The notes under the pieces: generated by a model
What the model was told of the DNA's origin: nothing
The model's input: the letters and a program-made list of their open reading frames with translations, nothing else
Databases searched by the model: none
Shown: one piece after another, positions 40,810 to 64,000 of the stretch
Layout of the letters: the number at the start of each line of letters is the position of its first letter
Position numbering within the stretch: the stretch's first letter is position 1
Made by a program: the position numbers and the translations under genes
Source of the DNA: Schmidtea polychroa
Lineage: Eukaryota
Direction of reading: 5' to 3'
Assembly (NCBI GenBank): GCA_044892525.1
Contig: CM097885.1
Span: 155,124,001 to 155,188,000, forward strand
Length of the DNA stretch: 64,000 bases

Positions 40810-43067
40810 CAGGGGTGCCCATAAGGTCGATCGCGATCTACCGGTAGATCGCGAGGGATTTTTTAGTAGATCTTCATAAAAAAATATTTTTTATATAAAT
40901 TTAGATTTTATATAAAATTTCTGTTTTATGCTTAAATTTTTGTGTAACAAAGTGAAAAATTTTCTTAAGCTTTTTTGTTAAATTAATTTTGTTTAAAAAT
41001 GCTAAATAAAAAAGCCAAGACTTATCATTATAGCGAAGAAATGGAGAAGGAGTACTTTTTTGTAATGATTAAAGGTAAATGTTGTTGCTTAATTTGTAAA
41101 GCTACTATTTCATTACCAAAAATAGGGAATTTGGAAAGGCATTTCAAGACAATTCATAAGAATTTTGCAGTTGAATATCCACTTGACAGTGAACTACGCA
41201 AGTCTAAAATCATGGAACTGAAAACATGCATTTCTTTTCAACAGTCATTTTTTACGAAGCTAACATCCAAATCAAAGTCAGCTACAGCTGCATCTTTCCG
41301 AGTAAGCTACATTCTGGCAAAAAATAAGAAATCTTTTAGTGATGGAGTAATTGTAAAAGAAGCATTTTTAGAAGCGGCAGAATCATTATTTTGTGATTTT
41401 AAAAATAAATCAGATATAATTTCTGCTATTACTGATATGCAATTGTCCCGTAATAGAGTTACACGGAGAGTCCAAGAAATAAGTACCAATTTAAAAAATC
41501 AGTTAATGTTAGAAATAGGAAATTGTACCGCATTTTCATTGCAAGCAGACGAATCAACTGATGCGGCTGATATTTCGCAGCTTATAATTTTTATTCGAAT
41601 GGTCTTTAAAGATTTTTCTACGAAGGAAGAATTATTAACAATTATACCACTCAAAAGTAAAACTCGAGGTGAGGATATATTTCAGAATTTTAAAGCTTAT
41701 GCCAACAGCATTAAGCTCCAAATTTGTAAGCTTGTATCAATAACAACAGATGGCGCACCAGCTATGACAGGGCGTCACAACGGATTTATAGCATATTGTA
41801 GGAATGATTGTGAATTCCCAGATTTTCTTTCCTACCACTGTATTATTCATCAACAAGCCTTGTGTGCTAAAATTCTGAATATGAGAGATATTATGGAAAT
41901 AACATTCAAAATTGCTAACTCGATTCGTGCAAGAAGTCTTCAGAGACGACTTTTCAAATTACAAATTGAAGAAAGTAATAGCGAAGGTCCTGCTGAATTA
42001 CTGATGCATTCAGATGTAAGGTGGCTAAGTAGAGGAAAATTCTTACAAAGATTTAGAGATTTGCTTTCTGAGATTAAGTTGTTCCTTGCCACAAGAGGTG
42101 ATGAGTTCAAGCAATTGGAAGATGATGTTTGGCTCTTGGATTTGGCATTTTTAGTAGATATTACTGCAATTCTGAATGAATTAAATCTCGACTTACAAGG
42201 TAAGGATAAATTGATATTCGATATGATAAGTTCAATCAATGCATTTATACAAAAGCTTCATTTACTTATTACCAAAATAGAAGACAAAAATTTAAGTTAT
42301 TTTCCAAATACGTTGTCACAATTAAAAGAATCTGAAAATGTCAACTTTAATATTACGAGATATGCGGAACAGATCAAAATTTTGGTTTAAGAGTTCGAGA
42401 GACGTTTTCAAGACTTCAAGAAACTTGAAATTGTGGCTGCATTTATGTCCTTTCCGTTTAATCCAAAAATAAAACCAGAAATTGTTGCAGATTCAATTTC
42501 AACTTTGTTTAAAATGGATATCCCTATACTTGAAATGGAAATAATCACACTTCAAAATGATATCTTCATTAAATCAAGATCTTCCGAACCAAATGTATGG
42601 AAATATCTATCAGAGGATAAATATTCAAACTTGAAAAAATGCTTCGAAAATTTAGTATCATGTTTTGGTTCAACTTATATATGTGAGTCTGCATTTTCAC
42701 ATATGAAAATTATAAAGTCAAAGTACCGAGCAACATTAACAGATGACCATTTGGAATCCAGCCTAAGAAGTTGTCTTAGCACTTATATCCCAAACTACAA
42801 AAATCTAGTGGATTCAACCCAGTGTAGAGCATCAACATCGAAAAGTTCTATATAAAAATAATTTTCATTAAATTTGATTTCCTAAGTTACATTTTTTTAT
42901 AATAAATAGTTATATAGTTTAATTTTCCATATTTTGACATATATTTGTTTTATTGTGATGAATTTATTGCATTGTAGGTAAATATTATGTAAGTATTAAA
43001 AAAGTAGATCGCATACACATTTTGGATGTGAATGTAGCTCTCCTAGAAAAATGAGTGGGCACCCCTG
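40810..43067 (+). mobile_element. hAT transposon (Charlie/SPIN/Buster, GTF2IRD2-like)
   Basis: Perfect 12-bp TIR CAGGGGTGCCCA; perfect 8-bp TSD CTGTATAA (40802-40809, 43068-43075). Confidence 0.97.
40999..42855 (+). pseudogene. hAT transposase with one in-frame stop
   Basis: BED-like CLIC..NLERHFKTIH, DESTD, ITTDGAPAM, HCIIHQQAL, VRWLSRG, STYICESAFS. The two ORFs are in the same frame, separated by TAA at 42388-42390. Confidence 0.92.
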
Positions 43068-43602: not shown

Positions 43603-46205
43603 TCAAGAATCTGAAACAGGATTTGCAGGAAATGTTTGCGTTAAGATTTGCGAGATTTGTGGAGCCTTATCACTCCCGATGATATTTTGTTTCAATGGAG
43701 TCGATGATTTTAATTGCCATTGATTATTTCCAATGTAAACCATAGGATGGCATAAGACTTTATCAGGTCGAATAATGTGTCCTTCTGATAAATCTGAACA
43801 TGAAGAATCAGTTTCTATGAGAGTATGAACTTGTCCTGGCCACAATGTTTGCCCAAGACAAGACAATGAATGGTACTGAAGAAGTGCGAGTTGTGCAGCA
43901 ATAACAGCCTGTCCCCAATTTATTGATCCTGTTGGATGTTGGCTCATCATTTGCTGCTGCCAAAGTGACATTATCGTTTGATTTACTCCGGTTATACCTA
44001 TTCCTTCAATTTTAGATAGTTCTTCTTTTATAGACGGAGATGAATTTAGTGTTCCGCATTCAACATCAGGAATTTCGTCGTTGCTAATGATCTCTGAATT
44101 TCTTTCTTGCTTAATTATATTTGTCACTACAATCTCTGAATGATGTTTTGTTGAATCAGATTCATTCAAAATCCGTTCACTGCTATTGTTGTTAGATATA
44201 ACTGACCCATCAGAATGCGTACTCTATTCACAATTAATANNNNNNNNNNNNNNNNNNNNNNNNNNNNNNNNNNNNNNNNNNNNNNNNNNNNNNNNNNNNN
44301 NNNNNNNNNNNNNNNNNNNNNNNNNNNNNNNNNNNNNNNNNNNNNNNNNNNNNNNNNNNNNNNNNNNNNNNNNNNNNNNNNGGCATTAATTAAATTTTAA
44401 ACAATTAAATGATAATTTAAGACTTTTGCTGTAAATAATATATTTAATACTGTTGGGTTGCTGGGTCATTGGCGATATTTGTAATTTTAAAATTCTTACC
44501 CTGACTACAAGCGTGCTTTTAACTAATCAACAAATAACATTTGAAAACAGGAATCTTTATTGATAATCACAAATAATTTTCACTTTACACTGACACAATC
44601 AATTCAACAATCTGATCGGTGATTATATAATGCATATTATGACACTCTGTTAAGAATTGCACTCGCGTATAACACCGGGTTTGAAGGATCACTAACTACT
44701 GATTTGCTTTAACTACTCGAAATTTGAGCTGGTTGTTTTCTTTGGAGTGACGTGAATTCTACTCGCTAGACCTTTCCTTTTTGACAACTTTCTTCAAAAA
44801 TTCCAATAACTTCTGTATTTTTTCAATTAATTCTTCTCTTACAATTCTTCTCTTACAATTCTTCTCTAACAATTACTCCTTTAGCAATTCATCTCCGACA
44901 ATATTCGTATCGGTAAAGTTACACAATTCTTTTCCTACAGTTTCTGTTTTTGTTTTCTCGCAATTCTCTTTTATATAGCTCGTAAATTTGAGGTACTTGA
45001 TCTTATCTTTCTGTTTTTCCCAATCTGCCCTTGGGACACTGCACATAATTTTGTTTCACACTATCTCTGACAGCTGTCGAGATAATTTTTAATTTCCTTT
45101 TTTGTTTACCCGCCTTTTCCCTTCGAATTCGCTATCTCTGACAGGCTTTCAAGATATGCATTTCTTTCTGTTTTTTTTGGGATTTGAAATTCCTCTATCC
45201 CCTTTTGTACTTCTTAATTGATGACCTTTATTTTAATTTCTTGTTTGCTTTCTTTTGTTTGATTTTTTTCTCATTTCCCATTTCTTTTTACTTCCACTTT
45301 CTTTTCCGAGTTCCCATAAATCGTCTCGTTCGTCATGACAATTTCAAAATTGACAAGAGCTATCTTATAGTAGAAAATCTTTTCATTTGTAGTAAATATA
45401 TTATTCGCGGCAANNNNNNNNNNNNNNNNNNNNNNNNNNNNNNNNNNNNNNNNNNNNNNNNNNNNNNNNNNNNNNNNNNNNNNNNNNNNNNNNNNNNNNN
45501 NNNNNNNNNNNNNNNNNNNNNNNNNNNNNNNNNNNNNNNNNNNNNNNNNNNNNNNNNNNNNNNNTAGCAGCGTTGATTACATTTTAAATAATTTTCATTT
45601 GTATTATATATATTATTTGCATTAAAATGCTTAAATTATCATTTAATTTTTTAAAAACAATAATAATAATAATGAGAAATACCGAAATGATTTTAGCAAA
45701 TAAATAATTTTGTTACCAAAGATTCAAGTTGCTTAATATCTCCTTCATCTATACGGCCAACTGAAGAACTCTTAATTCCTTTATCCCGTATAATTCGATT
45801 GATTGACGATATACTTGGAGCCGATCTCTCTGTGCAAGCTCCTTCATCCACTAGTCTTTGTCTGATTTCCCAAGCGAAAATCTGAGGATTTTTTTCTCTA
45901 TAAGATTTTACGAGTGACACAATTTCTGGAGTTGTAACTTTAGGTTTCGAACCCCCAATTTGACCAGGATTGATAGATCCTGTTCGCGAATATCTACAAT
46001 TTTTTGTAATTATAATAGAACTAAAATCAATTATACCTATTTAAAATTTTGCTTACGCATCCATGAGATACTTGTAATTGCCTTGAAATTTCACAAGGTC
46101 TGACATTTTCCATTGCCATTTTTAAAATTTTCAACCTCAAATCTTCTGGCAATGGTCTACCATTTGTGAATACTCGACCATATTGATTGACATTTTGACC
46201 AGCTC
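43603..46205 (-). CDS. Paired-domain transcription factor, Pax-beta-like
   Basis: Exons 46037-46205, 45717-45993 and 43603-44223 (GT-AG, phase-consistent): [81 protein letters not shown]. Additional exons may lie in the N-gaps. Confidence 0.9.
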
Positions 46206-57308: not shown

Positions 57309-57559
57309 AGTAGTGTGTATATAGCCCTAACCCAAACAACCCTCCCAACAAAACATACCTCCATTACGCTTAAACCATTACAAAAACAACCAAAAACTTA
57401 TACTTTTATAGTATTTTAACCCCATATTTTAAACAACAACCACCCTTAATCTTTAAAGCCTCAAACTCAAAAGCTTCAAACTAAAAAGAGAATAGAAAAG
57501 AAAATGGCATTATGAAAAAGTTAGAGGGCTATTTGGGATAGGGCTATATACACACTACT
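57309..57559. mobile_element. Miniature element with Polinton-type AGTAGT termini (251 bp)
   Basis: Perfect 21-bp TIR AGTAGTGTGTATATAGCCCTA, imperfect to ~40 bp; flanks CTTGAC / TTTGAT (4 of 6 match, possible decayed 6-bp TSD). Confidence 0.65.
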
Positions 57560-58135: not shown

Positions 58136-58186
58136 AAATCTAAGATACCCACACTATTATTTTCAAATTTAAAAAAAAAAAAAAAA

Positions 58187-58261
58187 CTAACCACAGTTAG
58201 GATTTGAACCGCTATCCATTTGAACCACGGTGCCGGTCTAGCCCACTGCGCTATCTAGGTT
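58187..58261 (-). ncRNA. tRNA-like Pol III unit 1
   Basis: A box TAGCGCAGTGG (58243-58253), B box GGTTCAAATCC (58200-58210), 32 nt apart, then GGTTAG+T16. Confidence 0.6.
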
Positions 58262-58507
58262 TGGATTTTTCTCATTTTTTAGACTATAAATAATCGATTC
58301 AAGTTCTTTAACTCTTTCCTGTAATTGTTTCATTTTCTTCAATCTTATATCAGCAACATCTACAGCCTTCATATAAAAATGTCGATACTTTTCATTATCT
58401 ACCATCAACTCTTTGATGTATTCTAATGGTTCTTCTTCTCTTCTTTTCATTCTCTTATGTTTAACTTCATTCAATTCATTTCTCATTCTTTCTTTTAACT
58501 CATCCAT
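58238..58507 (-). CDS. Small coiled-coil/basic protein (89 aa), unknown
   Basis: ATG in TATAAAAATG context, heptad-rich; its last codons overlap the A box of unit 1. Confidence 0.55.
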   Translation of the reverse strand: MDELKERMRNELNEVKHKRMKRREEEPLEYIKELMVDNEKYRHFYMKAVDVADIRLKKMKQLQERVKELESIIYSLKNEKNPNLDSAVG

Positions 58508-58677
58508 TTTTATAAATATTTTTTTTATTGGATATATTAATTTTTGGTAGCTTAAGTTAAAACGTTTTTGATCTTAAATTTCCAAGAGTTGCCGTTGACC
58601 AATCTCCTTAAAAATTTGTACAAGTACTAAATCGAGTATGCTGATCAATATTTCGTTAAAAAAAATTTGAAAAAAAA

Positions 58678-58750
58678 TGACCGAAATGGGATTTGAACCC
58701 ATTGGTATTGGCAATGCAGTCGAGTGCTATTACCACTAAGCTATTAGAGC
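58678..58750 (-). ncRNA. tRNA-like Pol III unit 2 (5' half resembles tRNA-Cys GCA)
   Basis: A box TAGCTTAGTGG, B box GGTTCAAATCC 33 nt away, perfect T-arm ATGGG/CCCAT, partial D-arm, unpaired anticodon stem, ends GGTCA+T8. Confidence 0.65.
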
Positions 58751-58920
58751 TATACTCAATATAAAATAAGTTGTTAATGTGTGACTATTTATTGATGAAA
58801 TTAATAATTAATTATTCATTTTCTCGACAACTACCACTCAGATCCATCTGAAAATTTAAATATATACTAAAATCAGTACGCTGAATCAGATTCCGTTGAA
58901 AAAAAAATATCGAAAAAAAT

Positions 58921-58994
58921 TGACCAAAATCGAAAATTGAACCCGGTACTCCCGGTGATAAAATTGAAGCCTATTCCCACTCCGCTATAATGGC
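58921..58994 (-). ncRNA. tRNA-like Pol III unit 3
   Basis: A box TAGCGGAGTGG, degenerate B box GGTTCAATTTT 33 nt away, CCGG-GAGTA-CCGG hairpin, ends GGTCAA+T7. Confidence 0.55.
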
Positions 58995-59050
58995 TTACAT
59001 AATATATTTAATTAATCCTATTTTGTGTGTGTAAATTTTAATATATAAAA

Positions 59051-60337
59051 ATGAATAATATAAAAATTCAAGAAAAAAATAAATTAAATCTTGATTATAA
59101 TAAAGAATTTACTCATGAAATCAAGAAAAACGATGTACTTAAAATCTCCCCAACTTCAGGATCTATTGCAAACTTAAATCGTAGGGGTGATATAGTTTTT
59201 CAATCTCTTCAAACATCAAACCCTATAGATATTTGTAATGCCAAATTATATTATAAAATCGAATTAGAAATTGAAGCAAACAAAGATATAACCCTAGAAA
59301 ATAATTTCTTTCCAAATTTATTCTCCAACATGAGATTAAAACTAGGATCATCAGAAATTGAAACTGTTTTGCATCCGGGAGTATATTCTACAATGTTAAA
59401 TTTTATTTTGACTGGTTGTGATTATAAAAATGAATATGGTGAATTAACAGGCTGGATTCCTGATGTTAATAAAGGAGATTTAGATAAAGATGGATTAGAT
59501 ATAAATTATGGTTACTATAAAAGAGCTGAACTTTATAAATCTAAAAAATTTGAAGGTTATTTTGAATTAAAACACTTGTTTGGATTCCTTCAAAACTATA
59601 ATCGTATACTTCATAATGTTTTTATAGAATTAGTTTGTAATAGAGTAGAAGGTGATAAAAGATTGTTGTATGGAGATAAGGATACAACAGCTAAATTAAA
59701 AATATCAACACTTGAATTGCATATACCTGAATGAACATTAAATCTACATTCTGAAATCAAACTCCCTGAAAGATTAAATTCCAACAAGTCTATAAATGTA
59801 AATTATTTAAATAGAATCTGTAGTGAATTTAGTATGACAGAGGGTTCAACATATTCTATAAAGGTAGCAAATTTAGCATACCGACCAAGATATATCTTGA
59901 TTGGATTCAAAGAAGTAGATTCATCTTTCCAAAAAAATAACAACTTGTTTATTCAAAAGATTGGAGTTGATAATTTAAAAACAATCCAAATTCAATTAAA
60001 TAGTTCTTATTATCCAATAAATAGAATGGAATTTAATATTGAAAATAATGAAAACATATTCCCATATCTAAATTATATTGAAACATGTTATGATTTCAAA
60101 GTTGAACCGCAATTAAGTTTAGAAGATTTAAAAAATTTATATTCTATATTTTGTATAAATGTTTCAGACCAAGATGATCGCCTAGCCATAAATAATGTTG
60201 ATGTTACACTTCATGTAACAAAGGATTCTAATTTTAAAGCTAAAGTATATACATTAATATTAGAAGAAAAGAAAATAGAAATGAAATTATATGGTGGAAA
60301 GATTTCAATAATCGAAAATGTTAGGGGAGATTCTTGA
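59051..60337 (+). pseudogene. Double-jelly-roll major capsid protein (Polinton PY/hexon-like), one in-frame TGA at 59732-59734
   Basis: LENNFFPNLFSNMRLKLGSSEIE..PGVYSTM and RPRYILIGF..IQLNSSYYP..FCINVSDQ match Polinton MCP patterns; the frame continues through the stop. Confidence 0.8.
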
Positions 60338-60366
60338 TATAATCCTTGATATTTTAACATTTTAAA

Positions 60367-61764
60367 ATGTCTCTCTATTGGAGATGTGAAAGTTGTAATT
60401 GTCAAGTTACAAGACATCATAAAGCAAGTCATCTAAAAACTAAAAAACATATAGGAGGCGACATGATTCCACGAGCCGGAGGCGACCTACAATCTTCAGA
60501 ACTGACATCTTCAATATTAAAACCTTTTACTACAGAAAAATATCCAGGTGAAAGACATTTATTTAAACACAACTATACCGGACCAGGAACAAGATTAGAT
60601 ATTAGATTAGATGAAAATAATAATCCCAAACAAGGAGAAGAACCAATAAATAGAATCGACCAAGCAGCTTTAAAACATGATATTGCTTACAATTCAGAAG
60701 ATCTTAGAGATAGACATGTTGCAGATGTTAATTTAATACATGATTTAAATAGTATCCAAAATCCATCAACCCAAGAAAAGATTCAAAGAGCTCTAGTTAA
60801 ATTAGCAATGAAAGGTAAGATTTTCATAGGCTTAGGACACAGTCCGATCGCCATGGGTGCAAGACTTCCTAGGAAAGCAAAAGATGTTGCTAATAAAAAG
60901 ATTATTGAACAAGCAGATGCTGAAAGATCCCTCGAGAATATATCCAAGACTAGTTTATTAACCCCAACAGAATCACAAATAAAATATGCCAACGAATTAC
61001 ACCATGAATTTAGAAAAAATAAAAAATATTTAAAAGTTCAAGTACATGAAAAAGATCAAACATGGTCTGCAGATTTAGTCTTTATGCCAACCAAATCATC
61101 AGACCCTGAAAAATATAAAATAATTTTAACTGTAATAGATTTATATACAAGATTTGCCTTTGCAAGGTGTTTAGAAAATAAAACAGGATATTCCATTACA
61201 GAAGCATTTGAAAATATATTTGAAGAACATCAAAGAATTCCAAAATATTTATGGAGTGATAAAGGAACAGAATTTTATAACAAAGTTTTTACAAAGTTTT
61301 TAAATGAAAATGATATTAAATTATATTCAACAGAAAACGAAGGAAAAGCAGTTGTGTTTGAAAGATTAAATAGAACATTAAAAAATAAAATGTGGAAATA
61401 TTTTACTGCTATTGGAAAACAAAAATGAATTGTTACAAAAGATTGTAAATGAATATAATAATGATGTACATAGTTCTATAAAATCAACACCTTTAAATGC
61501 TTCCATAAATCCTGAAACCATTAAAGTGGTAAATATTGAAAATGATGTTATTGAAAAACCAAAGTTTAAAATTGGTGACCGAGTAAGAATATTTAAATAT
61601 AAAAATAAATTTGAAAAAGGATTCACAGCAAAATGGCAAATGAAATTTTTATTATAAATAAAATAAATTATACAACTCCAATAACATATAGCATCATTGA
61701 TTTAAATAATGAAAAAATATTAGGTAGATTTTATAATAATGAGTTACAGAAAACAGATTTCTAA
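60367..61764 (+). pseudogene. C2H2 zinc finger + parvovirus-type phospholipase A2 + rve integrase in one frame; two frameshifts in the integrase 3' part
   Basis: CESCNC..HKASHLKTKKH; NYTGPGT..DQAALKHDIAY; WSADL, VIDLYTRFAF, WSDKGTEF, ERLNRTLK; then YNNDVHSSIK, FKIGDRVRI, FEKGFT, ITYSIIDL..GRFYNNELQKT. Shifts at ~61425 and ~61640. Confidence 0.88.
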
Positions 61765-62567
61765 GTCGACAAACTTTTCCATATTTCAGCTTCTTCTATA
61801 TCCAAATAAATATAATTATATTTTTCTTTCCAATGATTATCAACAAACATATCAAACATATTCTTATCAGGTTCAACATTTGAAAATAAATCATTATAAA
61901 TCATATTCTTATCACGCCTATCTAATTTAAAAAATATAAAACAATTGGAATTATTTCTTATTGAATTTTTATCTAAAGCATAATATGTTTGAGATATATA
62001 AATAACATTACAATTATTATGTCTTCCTCTTGTAAAGTAACTCTTTTGGATCTCTTGATTTTTCATGTTGACAACATCATCAAATATAACTAGATTCTTT
62101 TTATCTTTAGGAAGTAAATCACAATGTAAAACATCTTCAGGTTTATTAGAGAATAAAACTTGAATCGCCTGCCCCTCTTCACAGATGTAATCATTTTTAT
62201 TACTAATATCTGATTCTAAAATCATTTCCTTATACCAATCAACCATATCACAAGGTTGAAAAACTTCTTCAGGACATCTATGTTGATTTTTAAAAATATC
62301 AATTATAGCTTTTTTAGTTAAGTTATTTTCAAATCCACATTTCAAAAGTTGTAATTCTGGTTGATTTATGGTTGTAGAGTAAAAGATTAAATTATTATAA
62401 TCTAAAAAATCATCTTCAAGCAACATTTTCAAAACAAGTACATTCTTTCCACATCCAGAAGAACCAACAAATAATAATCTAAAATTATCAGGAAATACTT
62501 TATTATTAAATTTAGATTTATGTCTATTTAAAATTGGTTTCCAAATTATTGGACTTCGTACATCCAT
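61761..62567 (-). CDS. A32/FtsK-like DNA packaging ATPase
   Basis: Walker A GSSGCGKN (N at the usual S/T position), Walker B LVIFDD, FTRGRHNNCNVIYISQ, IRNNSN; ATG at 62567. Confidence 0.92.
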   Translation of the reverse strand: MDVRSPIIWKPILNRHKSKFNNKVFPDNFRLLFVGSSGCGKNVLVLKMLLEDDFLDYNNLIFYSTTINQPELQLLKCGFENNLTKKAIIDIFKNQHRCPEEVFQPCDMVDWYKEMILESDISNKNDYICEEGQAIQVLFSNKPEDVLHCDLLPKDKKNLVIFDDVVNMKNQEIQKSYFTRGRHNNCNVIYISQTYYALDKNSIRNNSNCFIFFKLDRRDKNMIYNDLFSNVEPDKNMFDMFVDNHWKEKYNYIYLDIEEAEIWKSLST

Positions 62568-62582
62568 TTTATTTATTATAAA

Positions 62583-63206
62583 ATGACCTCGAAGAGTTCC
62601 TCTACTGAAGAATCTTTGCAAGAATTAATAAATTCAAATAAAAATAAATCAGTAGTAATTGATGGTAAAAAATATTTTATTGGAAAACATGTAAAAGAAC
62701 AAGTTAAAGAACGTATAGGGAGTTCCTCCAAATCCGGTGGCATTCTTCCATTAGCTGCTTTAATACCTGCAATCATTGCCGGACTATCAGGTGCTGCTGG
62801 AATAGCTGGAGGAATTGCAACTACAGTTCAAAAAGCTAAAGAATCTCAAAAGACAGACCTAGAAAAAGAAAAACTACAAACTGAAATCGATTCAATGAAG
62901 AAGGTAGGGCAAGCTAAAGGGGGAGTGTCCGTTGGAAAAGGCCTCTATCTTAATCCATATGAGGGGACTCTGTCTGAAGGTCAAAAGTCTCAGGGGACTC
63001 TGTCCAAGGGAAAGGGTCTCTATCTTGATCCTTATAAAGGTAGAGGTTTAAATGATTTTTTAAAAAATCAAATTTCTACATCTGAATCTTTATCTTCAAA
63101 AGATAAAGATGATTTAAAAAAAATATGTAAATCTTTAAAGAATGGATGCCTTTGTAAAACTAGAAATGGTAAAGGTTTATACTTGAAGCCCTTCGAACCC
63201 CATTGA
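62583..63206 (+). CDS. Adenovirus pX (mu)-like core/membrane-active protein with GKGLYL repeats
   Basis: GGILPLAALIPAIIAGLSGAAGIAGGIAT resembles adenovirus pX GGILPLLIPLIAAAIGA..GIA. Confidence 0.7.
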   Translation: MTSKSSSTEESLQELINSNKNKSVVIDGKKYFIGKHVKEQVKERIGSSSKSGGILPLAALIPAIIAGLSGAAGIAGGIATTVQKAKESQKTDLEKEKLQTEIDSMKKVGQAKGGVSVGKGLYLNPYEGTLSEGQKSQGTLSKGKGLYLDPYKGRGLNDFLKNQISTSESLSSKDKDDLKKICKSLKNGCLCKTRNGKGLYLKPFEPH

Positions 63207-63228
63207 TACCATTTTTAATACCATAAAA

Positions 63229-64000
63229 ATGGTATATGAAGAAAGATTAGCACTTTTAAAAAAATTACAATCTGAACAAGATAAATATAATAAAAAAGAT
63301 ACAACTCAACATGCTGAATCTATAATATTAAATGAGGTAATAACACAACAACAGGGGCCAACAATTAAAGCTATAGAGGGACTTAAAACTATAGAAGCTC
63401 CTCTAACCCCTGAACTTAAAGCTATAGAACCTTCTAAAAAGGAATTATCAAGATTAATGGGTTTAAGAAAACGTAGAAATACTATTGATTTAGAAGAAGA
63501 TGAATTTCTTTCAAGATTAACACCTCTTAAGACTCCAGTTAATTTTAAAATTAATACATCACTAGCTAAATCAATTATACCTACTATAGGTTATGATCCT
63601 AGAGGTTTTCAAACAATAACAATTAATAATCAAAAATTTTATATATATTTAAATTCAAAAAATAATCCAGCGATTATTTCAACAAATACTTTTATGAATA
63701 GAGAGCGTGTAGACATTGAACTTTCAGATGGTTTTCATGGATTAATTTCTGGATATATTCCAGATGGTGTCAAGAATGAAGAATTTGATAAATATTTAAA
63801 CTTAATAAAATTAATAAATGGTAGCCCTAAAGCAAAACATATTCAAGATTTAAAGAAATATTTAAATAAAAATGAAAGGGGTTATGTTGTTACAGAGGGT
63901 AAGGGGATGCCTGAGGCTGCAAACCCAATCAATCTTTTTATTGAATTAAGAAAACTATTAGCAGCTAAAAAGCAGGACATAATAATTTAGATTCTGATAT
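63229..64000 (+). CDS. Polinton PZ-like virion protein, probably frameshifted near 63970 and running off the window
   Basis: NPINLFIELRKLLAAKK, with AGHNN in the adjacent frame (cf. DPNEL..RL.LL.A...AGN); GFHGLISG..DKYLNLI block. Confidence 0.6.

Follow-up and report, generated by a model that had tools for sequence, protein, structure and literature searches.

The window analysed here, by which we mean the whole stretch of 64,000 nt, comes from Schmidtea polychroa (GCA_044892525.1, CM097885.1, 155,124,001-155,188,000, forward strand) and holds, towards its end, part of a Polinton-like element. Judged by its sequence, this element belongs to a high-copy Polinton/adintovirus family and has decayed. 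The following features lie within it or next to it.

57309..57559, no strand assigned: 251-bp unit with 36-nt inverted arms (92% complementary) starting AGTAGT, a possible non-autonomous Polinton-end derivative (sequence)
58180..58985, minus strand: three tRNA-like units 5' of the capsid gene, each with A box, B box and a trailing T run (sequence, Rfam)
59051..60337, plus strand: capsid gene of the double jelly-roll kind, interrupted by one internal stop (PF21738 in both halves; matches capsid genes of related loci)
60367..61428, plus strand: fused ORF of 353 aa, zinc finger, PLA2 and integrase core (sequence, Pfam, sister alignment)
61761..62570, minus strand: A32-like genome-packaging ATPase (PF04665, E 1.3e-7)
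62583..63206, plus strand: gene for a pX-like membrane-active core protein, separate from the PLA2 (inspection, against the tails of stand-alone PLA2X)
63229..63990, plus strand: ORF without a Pfam match, probably a Polinton gene by its position (sequence)

Of the genes typical of a Polinton/Maverick (adintovirus, Eupolintoviridae), those for the rve integrase with its DDE triad, the capsid and the A32/FtsK packaging ATPase are present. Protein-primed PolB, penton and adenain-like protease gave no match within the window, whose edge falls inside the element; in larger PLA2-integrase relatives the capsid, penton, ATPase, protease and PolB genes are found, and the protease and penton occur both in relatives fused in frame and in those with a -1 integrase. 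Contigs of four public runs span all 30 bins of positions 59000-64000 (48,036 records in one run), and other copies among them differ from the window at its frame breaks. Polintons are recognized by terminal inverted repeats and a 6-bp target duplication; the AGTAGT-ended unit is self-contained, and the far end of the element lies beyond the window. The pX-like ORF contains a GG followed by a hydrophobic stretch and G-x-G-L repeats (G-x-G-L-Y-L). It also carries a 40-nt direct repeat at 75-nt spacing; together, these repeated motifs are possibly tandem protease sites.

The fused ORF and the sequence that follows it can be divided as follows.

60385..60450, plus strand: Cys2His2 finger, C-x2-C-x11-H-x5-H, with U1/JAZ-like spacing, an interchangeable N-terminal module (sequence)
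60448..60486, plus strand: a pair of GG-D motifs in a linker of low model confidence, of which the second, G38-G39, is conserved; a candidate protease site (alignment, model)
60538..60837, plus strand: parvovirus VP1u-type PLA2 with Ca loop, H104-D105, Y108 and D120, ending in K-x3-G-x-G (Pfam, alignment, model)
60838..60987, plus strand: in-frame linker of 50 aa without a slippery heptamer; linkers of homologs range from 1 to 71 aa (sequence)
60988..61425, plus strand: N-terminal helix of the integrase and its catalytic core, with D236, D298 and E332 as the DDE triad (Pfam, alignment, model)
61424..61764, plus strand: C-terminal third of the integrase, in two pieces in other frames (alignment to sister)

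The preliminary description treated 60367..61764 as one continuous frame. The ATG at 60367 does open a stop-free frame through the finger, the PLA2 and the integrase core, but a stop codon lies at 61426-61428, and, in comparison with an unbroken sister, two frame breaks divide the remaining integrase tail into 61424-61636 and 61627-61761. The proposed C2H2 finger is there in its residues (C7, C10, H22 and H28, spanning 7-28 of the 353-aa frame); however, it has no Pfam match, and a finger of this type occurs in only 13/119 two-domain homologs. The zf-U1 family was matched weakly, under the curated cut-off, in three homologs and not by the window finger. The other two domains are as described: the PLA2 matches PF08398 at residues 64-145 (E 1.7e-9) and has the YTGPG loop, H104-D105, Y108 and D120, so that the sequence features of a parvovirus-type PLA2, namely the Ca-binding GPG loop, HDxxY and a downstream Asp, are all present, and the rve core matches PF00665 at residues 227-320 (E 3.1e-12) with D236, D298 and E332 in place.

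An AlphaFold model of the 353-aa protein (mean pLDDT 78.7, pTM 0.42, 54 sequences) shows three domains, and the connecting segments at residues 31-44, 157-168 and 190-196 have pLDDT <50. With VIA-align, the integrase part resembles ASV integrase (Z 14.7, rmsd 2.5 over 122 residues), and the PLA2 part (54-156) resembles rice PLA2 at a middling level (Z 6.6, rmsd 3.8 over 88 residues). The Foldseek lists are dominated by integrases, and the PLA2 appears in them only through a densovirus VP1 at rank 50. A sister protein was folded without an alignment, and this model (pLDDT 32) was set aside.

A protein search limited to lengths of 194-618 aa found 264 homologs, and in the best 120 of these 264 both PLA2 and integrase are present in 119; because the length limit selects fusions, this count speaks for the existence and breadth of the architecture and not for its frequency. 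When the limit was removed, 29 of the best 150 PLA2 representatives continued in frame into an integrase, the remainder having short tails (84), long other tails (24), truncated ends (12) or pX (1). The long other tails (P0264-P0395) suggest that the PLA2 is a general carrier module. Among the 120 homologs the catalytic residues are kept almost without exception: H104 in 117/118, D105 in 117/118, D120 in 118/118, D236 in 120/120, D298 in 117/118 and E332 in 113/114. The fusion is therefore preserved in relatives, as the preliminary description had proposed to check, and two sister copies, P0001 (463 aa, 89% identical) and P0124 (470 aa), carry it unbroken, so that it is not a product of decay. 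A tree of 122 integrase sequences places the window in a 34-member clade (SH-like 0.99) whose members are all fused in frame, 32 of the 34 having been picked as fused proteins. The N-terminal module of 109 scored homologs is a C2H2 finger in 13, a C4 finger of the DUF5679 type in 47, another conserved start in 5 and something else or nothing in 44; as this module varies, the core unit is, by this comparison, PLA2-integrase.

In the PLA2 tree the members of the window's integrase clade do not all group together, and this tree therefore yields neither a single origin of the arrangement nor its order (frameshift or fusion first). Distances in the PLA2 and the integrase are nevertheless correlated (n=75; Mantel r 0.39, the highest value among 999 permutations being 0.20). 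Viral contigs scanned with a single protein gave no match. It should be mentioned that one PLA2-integrase locus, L097, and one with a DUF5679-like start, L098, sit in prokaryotic genome bins; the former is probably a eukaryotic contamination.

How does this gene compare with those already described? In adintoviruses, PLA2X consists of PLA2 and pX (Starrett et al. 2021, PMC8502044), and the parts of that account available to us mention no fusion with an integrase. The window gene shares with PLA2X the VP1u-type PLA2 within a Polinton virion module and the same K-x3-G-x-G end; PLA2X then continues into a basic tract and pX, whereas the window PLA2 continues into the integrase and a pX-like gene lies apart. 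In supplement file 2 of the preprint by Buck et al. 2024 (PMC11071296), two of the 59 PLA2 entries, from the genomes Adinto6405 and Adinto15303 (BK066529, BK066759), are labelled "PLA2-integrase". By inspection, Adinto6405, whose genome also lists Adenain and PolB in that supplement, is close to P0038/P0042 of the window clade. For both genomes there is a gene label only, and the starts shown have no zinc finger, unlike the window. The term "PLA2" does not occur in the main text of that preprint, where Penton and Hexon-Adenain are the only genes for which a -1 frameshift is proposed (PMC11071296). The same work defines the adintovirus integrase as having a C-terminal chromodomain (Buck 2024, PMC11071296). 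The window-type integrase departs from this definition: the unbroken sister P0001 ends without a chromodomain match, such matches being found in P0045 and the DUF5679 group, and the chromodomain of other adintovirus integrases is mostly absent from the window clade. The accessible portions of PMC3671162, PMC5803895, PMC4061559, PMC11161782, PMC11131425, PMC12567637 and 10.64898/2026.06.19.733378 do not mention the fusion. In the literature covered, which was mostly openly accessible, no paper reports a PLA2-integrase frameshift or discusses the fusion. The in-frame fusion was annotated before, without discussion, and the window's in-frame fusion alone adds a further member to this architecture; what is new here is the apparent -1 frameshift form in its relatives.

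To compare frames, 85 loci (5 viral and the best 80 of 439 metagenomic) were fetched with an alignment and joined by the window. These loci are related, and the counts among them are not independent. The PLA2 lies directly upstream of the integrase in 45 loci including the window, the integrase being in the same frame in 19, in the -1 frame in 19 and in the +1 frame in 7. In the 22 loci where each domain is in one stop-free piece, the figures are 13 in -1, 8 in the same frame and 1 in +1, although L003, counted among the 13, stays in frame across its linker and is more likely a fusion that has been broken. The preliminary description did not notice that a -1 frameshift appears to produce this fusion in many relatives.

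Canonical X_XXY_YYZ heptamers stand in phase in 14 of the 19 -1 overlaps, against about 1.1 expected from the background (22 per 5,899 codons), an expectation set too low because the junction is lysine-rich. A phase control, made without L003, L044 and the window, gives a modest contrast: the heptamer is found in phase in 15/18 -1 loci, in the other two phases in 9 and 9, and in same-frame loci in 5/17. The heptamer A_AAA_AAC, which is also the MMTV gag-pro site, recurs, always in the same phase, in 8 loci; their integrases share 47-74% identity and lie on separate branches. Hairpins lie 5-7 nt downstream of it in L023 (z -3.84), L030 (z -4.00) and L061 (z -4.27), a stimulatory structure being expected at 5-9 nt; that of L027 is weaker (z -2.27), and at 5/9 A_AAA_AAC sites the folding is not better than in shuffled sequences. 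Of the 14 slip sites tested, only 3 have a clearly significant hairpin downstream, the rest being marginal or absent. A home-made pseudoknot scan gave nothing convincing, the best p values being 0.02-0.025, uncorrected, in 2/14 sites. From these patterns in the sequences, several lineages probably set the ratio of PLA2 to integrase by a -1 frameshift.

A different view is that the window polyprotein is real and that the -1 pattern of its relatives reflects homopolymer errors, mutation of the A run or transcriptional slippage. A one-base deletion is enough to turn an in-frame fusion into the -1 class, and the copies of one family span all three frame classes, so that some of the -1 calls (e.g., L003) are A-run noise; in L097 the integrase is in +1, and the T_AAA_AAA sites of L002 and L065 are non-canonical. 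Cluster 8 is also mixed: among the 15 members listed, 9 are PLA2-only proteins of 173 aa and four are fusions of 472-473 aa, and the tails of the former, judged from the proteins, fit a shift of one base relative to the 472-aa fusions. Against this view stand the six-A heptamer, found in one phase in eight loci at 47-74% integrase identity, and two unrelated hairpin sequences at the classic spacing. The 0-frame tail encoded by one hairpin arm recurs in P0259 and P0277 and less exactly in P0391, and in L039 a 0-frame stop follows immediately 3' of the heptamer. We therefore consider it unlikely that noise of this kind accounts for the -1 pattern.

The next question is whether the fusion is cut. 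At the C-terminal end of the PLA2, GG or GxG is present in 108/117 homologs, and within 35 aa before the PLA2 in 93/109, compared with 9/751 control windows inside the integrase; G38 is kept in 103/107 aligned homologs. Both PLA2 borders (residues 31-44 and 157-168) are among the segments with pLDDT <50. The preliminary description likened three motifs of the window, HIGG/D, RAGG/D and FIGL/G, to adenain cleavage sites (the slash marks the cut). The motifs exist, but none of the three fits the adenain rule (M/I/L/N/Q)xGG/x or (M/I/L/N/Q)xGx/G, their P4 residues being H, R and F, and HIGG/D is absent from both sisters; all three do match the looser GG/X and GX/G. According to the part of the mavirus study accessible to us, the mavirus protease cuts at GG/X and GX/G (PMC6048507). 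The C-terminal G-x-G is also found in stand-alone PLA2X (L088, L089), where the basic tract and pX follow; this suggests that the motif was inherited and may be partly structural. Cleavage by a protease at these glycines is plausible from the sequence patterns.

It could also be that the protein works uncut, the PLA2 or the zinc finger tethering the integrase to membranes, RNA or chromatin and the glycines being structural only. The departure of the window sites from the P4 rule fits this idea, as does G155, which caps a helix in the AlphaFold model, and since the window clade is mostly without a chromodomain, the N-terminal module could replace it. However, the conserved N-terminal GG lies in a disordered linker, with tandem copies of it in P0002, and the N-terminal module is freely swapped among homologs. 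Moreover, the integrase is found in frame behind a protease as well, in L037:128-1432 and L046:274-1662 (weak PF00770, below the cut-off) and, by inspection, in L052:1787-3010. An uncut, tethering protein is, in our judgement, quite improbable. In-frame fusions of PLA2(X) to a protease are seen in L089:3989 onward and P0284, and such PLA2(X)-protease fusions are labelled PLA2X-Adenain in the supplement of Buck 2024 (PMC11071296).

The PLA2 and the integrase might instead be made separately, by an internal start or by splicing, with the common frame due to gene compaction. Met148 and Met163 lie upstream of the window integrase core, and in the published neighbour pair BK012049 the integrase has its own Met. 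Nevertheless, Met163 lies within a 10-aa insert that is absent from P0001, and an AUG before the first catalytic Asp was found in only 4/17 -1 loci (L003 and L073 being left out), compared with 38/40 loci without an upstream PLA2; three of these four AUGs are the codons of the PLA2 G-W-G read out of frame. An acceptor-like tract occurs in 0/17 -1 loci. By inspection, the Adinto13074 integrase annotated after PLA2X starts past the first catalytic Asp, as an unrecognized frameshift would predict. Separate synthesis is thus very unlikely. Finally, the probability that decay or misassembly of the window copy created the fusion is practically nil: the copy is indeed degenerate, its integrase tail being broken twice and its capsid gene holding a stop, but the artefact is refuted by the unbroken sisters P0001 and P0124 and the homologs. 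The clade fused throughout (its 32 preselected fusions included), homologs with a linker of 1 aa, the two published genomes labelled PLA2-integrase, and the absence of linker indels among the contig matches listed also speak against it.

The best explanation, which we hold with somewhat better than even confidence from these sequence comparisons, is that a virion PLA2 carries the integrase into the particle, either by frameshift or as a fixed fusion, and that a protease then releases it. The PLA2 gene would have lost the pX tail that such genes usually have and been joined to the integrase gene, and the PLA2, as a virion core protein, would take the integrase into the particle. The adenain-like protease of the element would cut at the GG before the PLA2 and at the G-x-G after it. 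The freed PLA2, being membrane-lytic, would then allow passage through the membrane at entry, and the mature integrase would insert the incoming genome once a new cell has been infected. According to the accessible part of PMC8502044, parvoviral PLA2 has a presumed role in breaking membranes at entry. In several related lineages, a -1 frameshift just past the G-x-G would yield much PLA2 and little PLA2-integrase, as with gag and gag-pol, and in the window lineage the fusion would have been fixed in frame at one to one.

The proposal that the product is a virion polyprotein, by which the preliminary description coupled endosomal escape with integrase delivery, is supported indirectly: by the conserved glycine motifs in low-confidence linkers, by the protease-integrase fusions and by the occurrence of both an integrase and a lipase in mavirus virions. 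What had been observed is thus partly confirmed, and its interpretation partly supported. In the sections of the mavirus study available to us, the virions contain the integrase and a lipase cut near GK/G (Born et al. 2018, PMC6048507). The likeness would lie in a virion with an integrase and a protease-cut lipase; unlike PLA2-integrase, the mavirus proteins come from separate genes, the lipase is an alpha/beta-hydrolase, and these sections mention no fusion or frameshift.

Retroviruses and LTR retrotransposons offer a further parallel. In their gag/gag-pol system, the ORF of a particle protein is followed by the rve integrase, reached by a -1 slip or in a single frame, and a protease releases the products. 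PLA2-integrase genes likewise would have a particle-protein ORF before an rve integrase, connected by a -1 slippery site with a structure or by one frame; they differ in belonging to a dsDNA virus with a jelly-roll capsid, in using a phospholipase as the carrier, in having no RT and in encoding the adenain-like protease separately. Whether a broad group of Polintons works in this gag-pol-like manner, with a start-less integrase made only behind a virion enzyme (PLA2 or maturation protease), dosed by frameshift or by fixed fusion and freed by protease in the particle, is to us an evenly balanced question. If it is true, it would point, on genetic grounds, to movement of these elements as virions with a pre-made integrase, and it would account for some annotated Polinton integrases that do not have the first catalytic residue. 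Were an integrase obtainable only when fused to a virion enzyme, an infectious cycle with packaged integrase would have strong genetic support. The frameshift hypothesis can be tested cheaply with a reporter, without a virus.

Upstream of the capsid gene, one of the three tRNA-like units exceeds the Rfam tRNA gathering score (32.4 vs 29 bits), ARAGORN found no tRNA at 58180-58985, and related loci gave no tRNA or Rfam match (30 and 12 loci examined). Inserts of a SINE-like kind are one reading of these units; another is Pol III RNAs carried by the element, similar to the VA RNAs of adenoviruses. Between the units lies a small charged ORF of about 90 aa (58238-58510, minus strand), with no match in the related loci. 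Further away, a paired-box exon of a host gene (45693-46040, minus strand; PF00292, E 1.6e-28) lies about 11 kb from the element, and a Spin-type transposase (40987-42855, plus strand) has one in-frame stop and weak matches to DUF4371 and the Spin-doc finger; both are consistent with an AT-rich animal genome.
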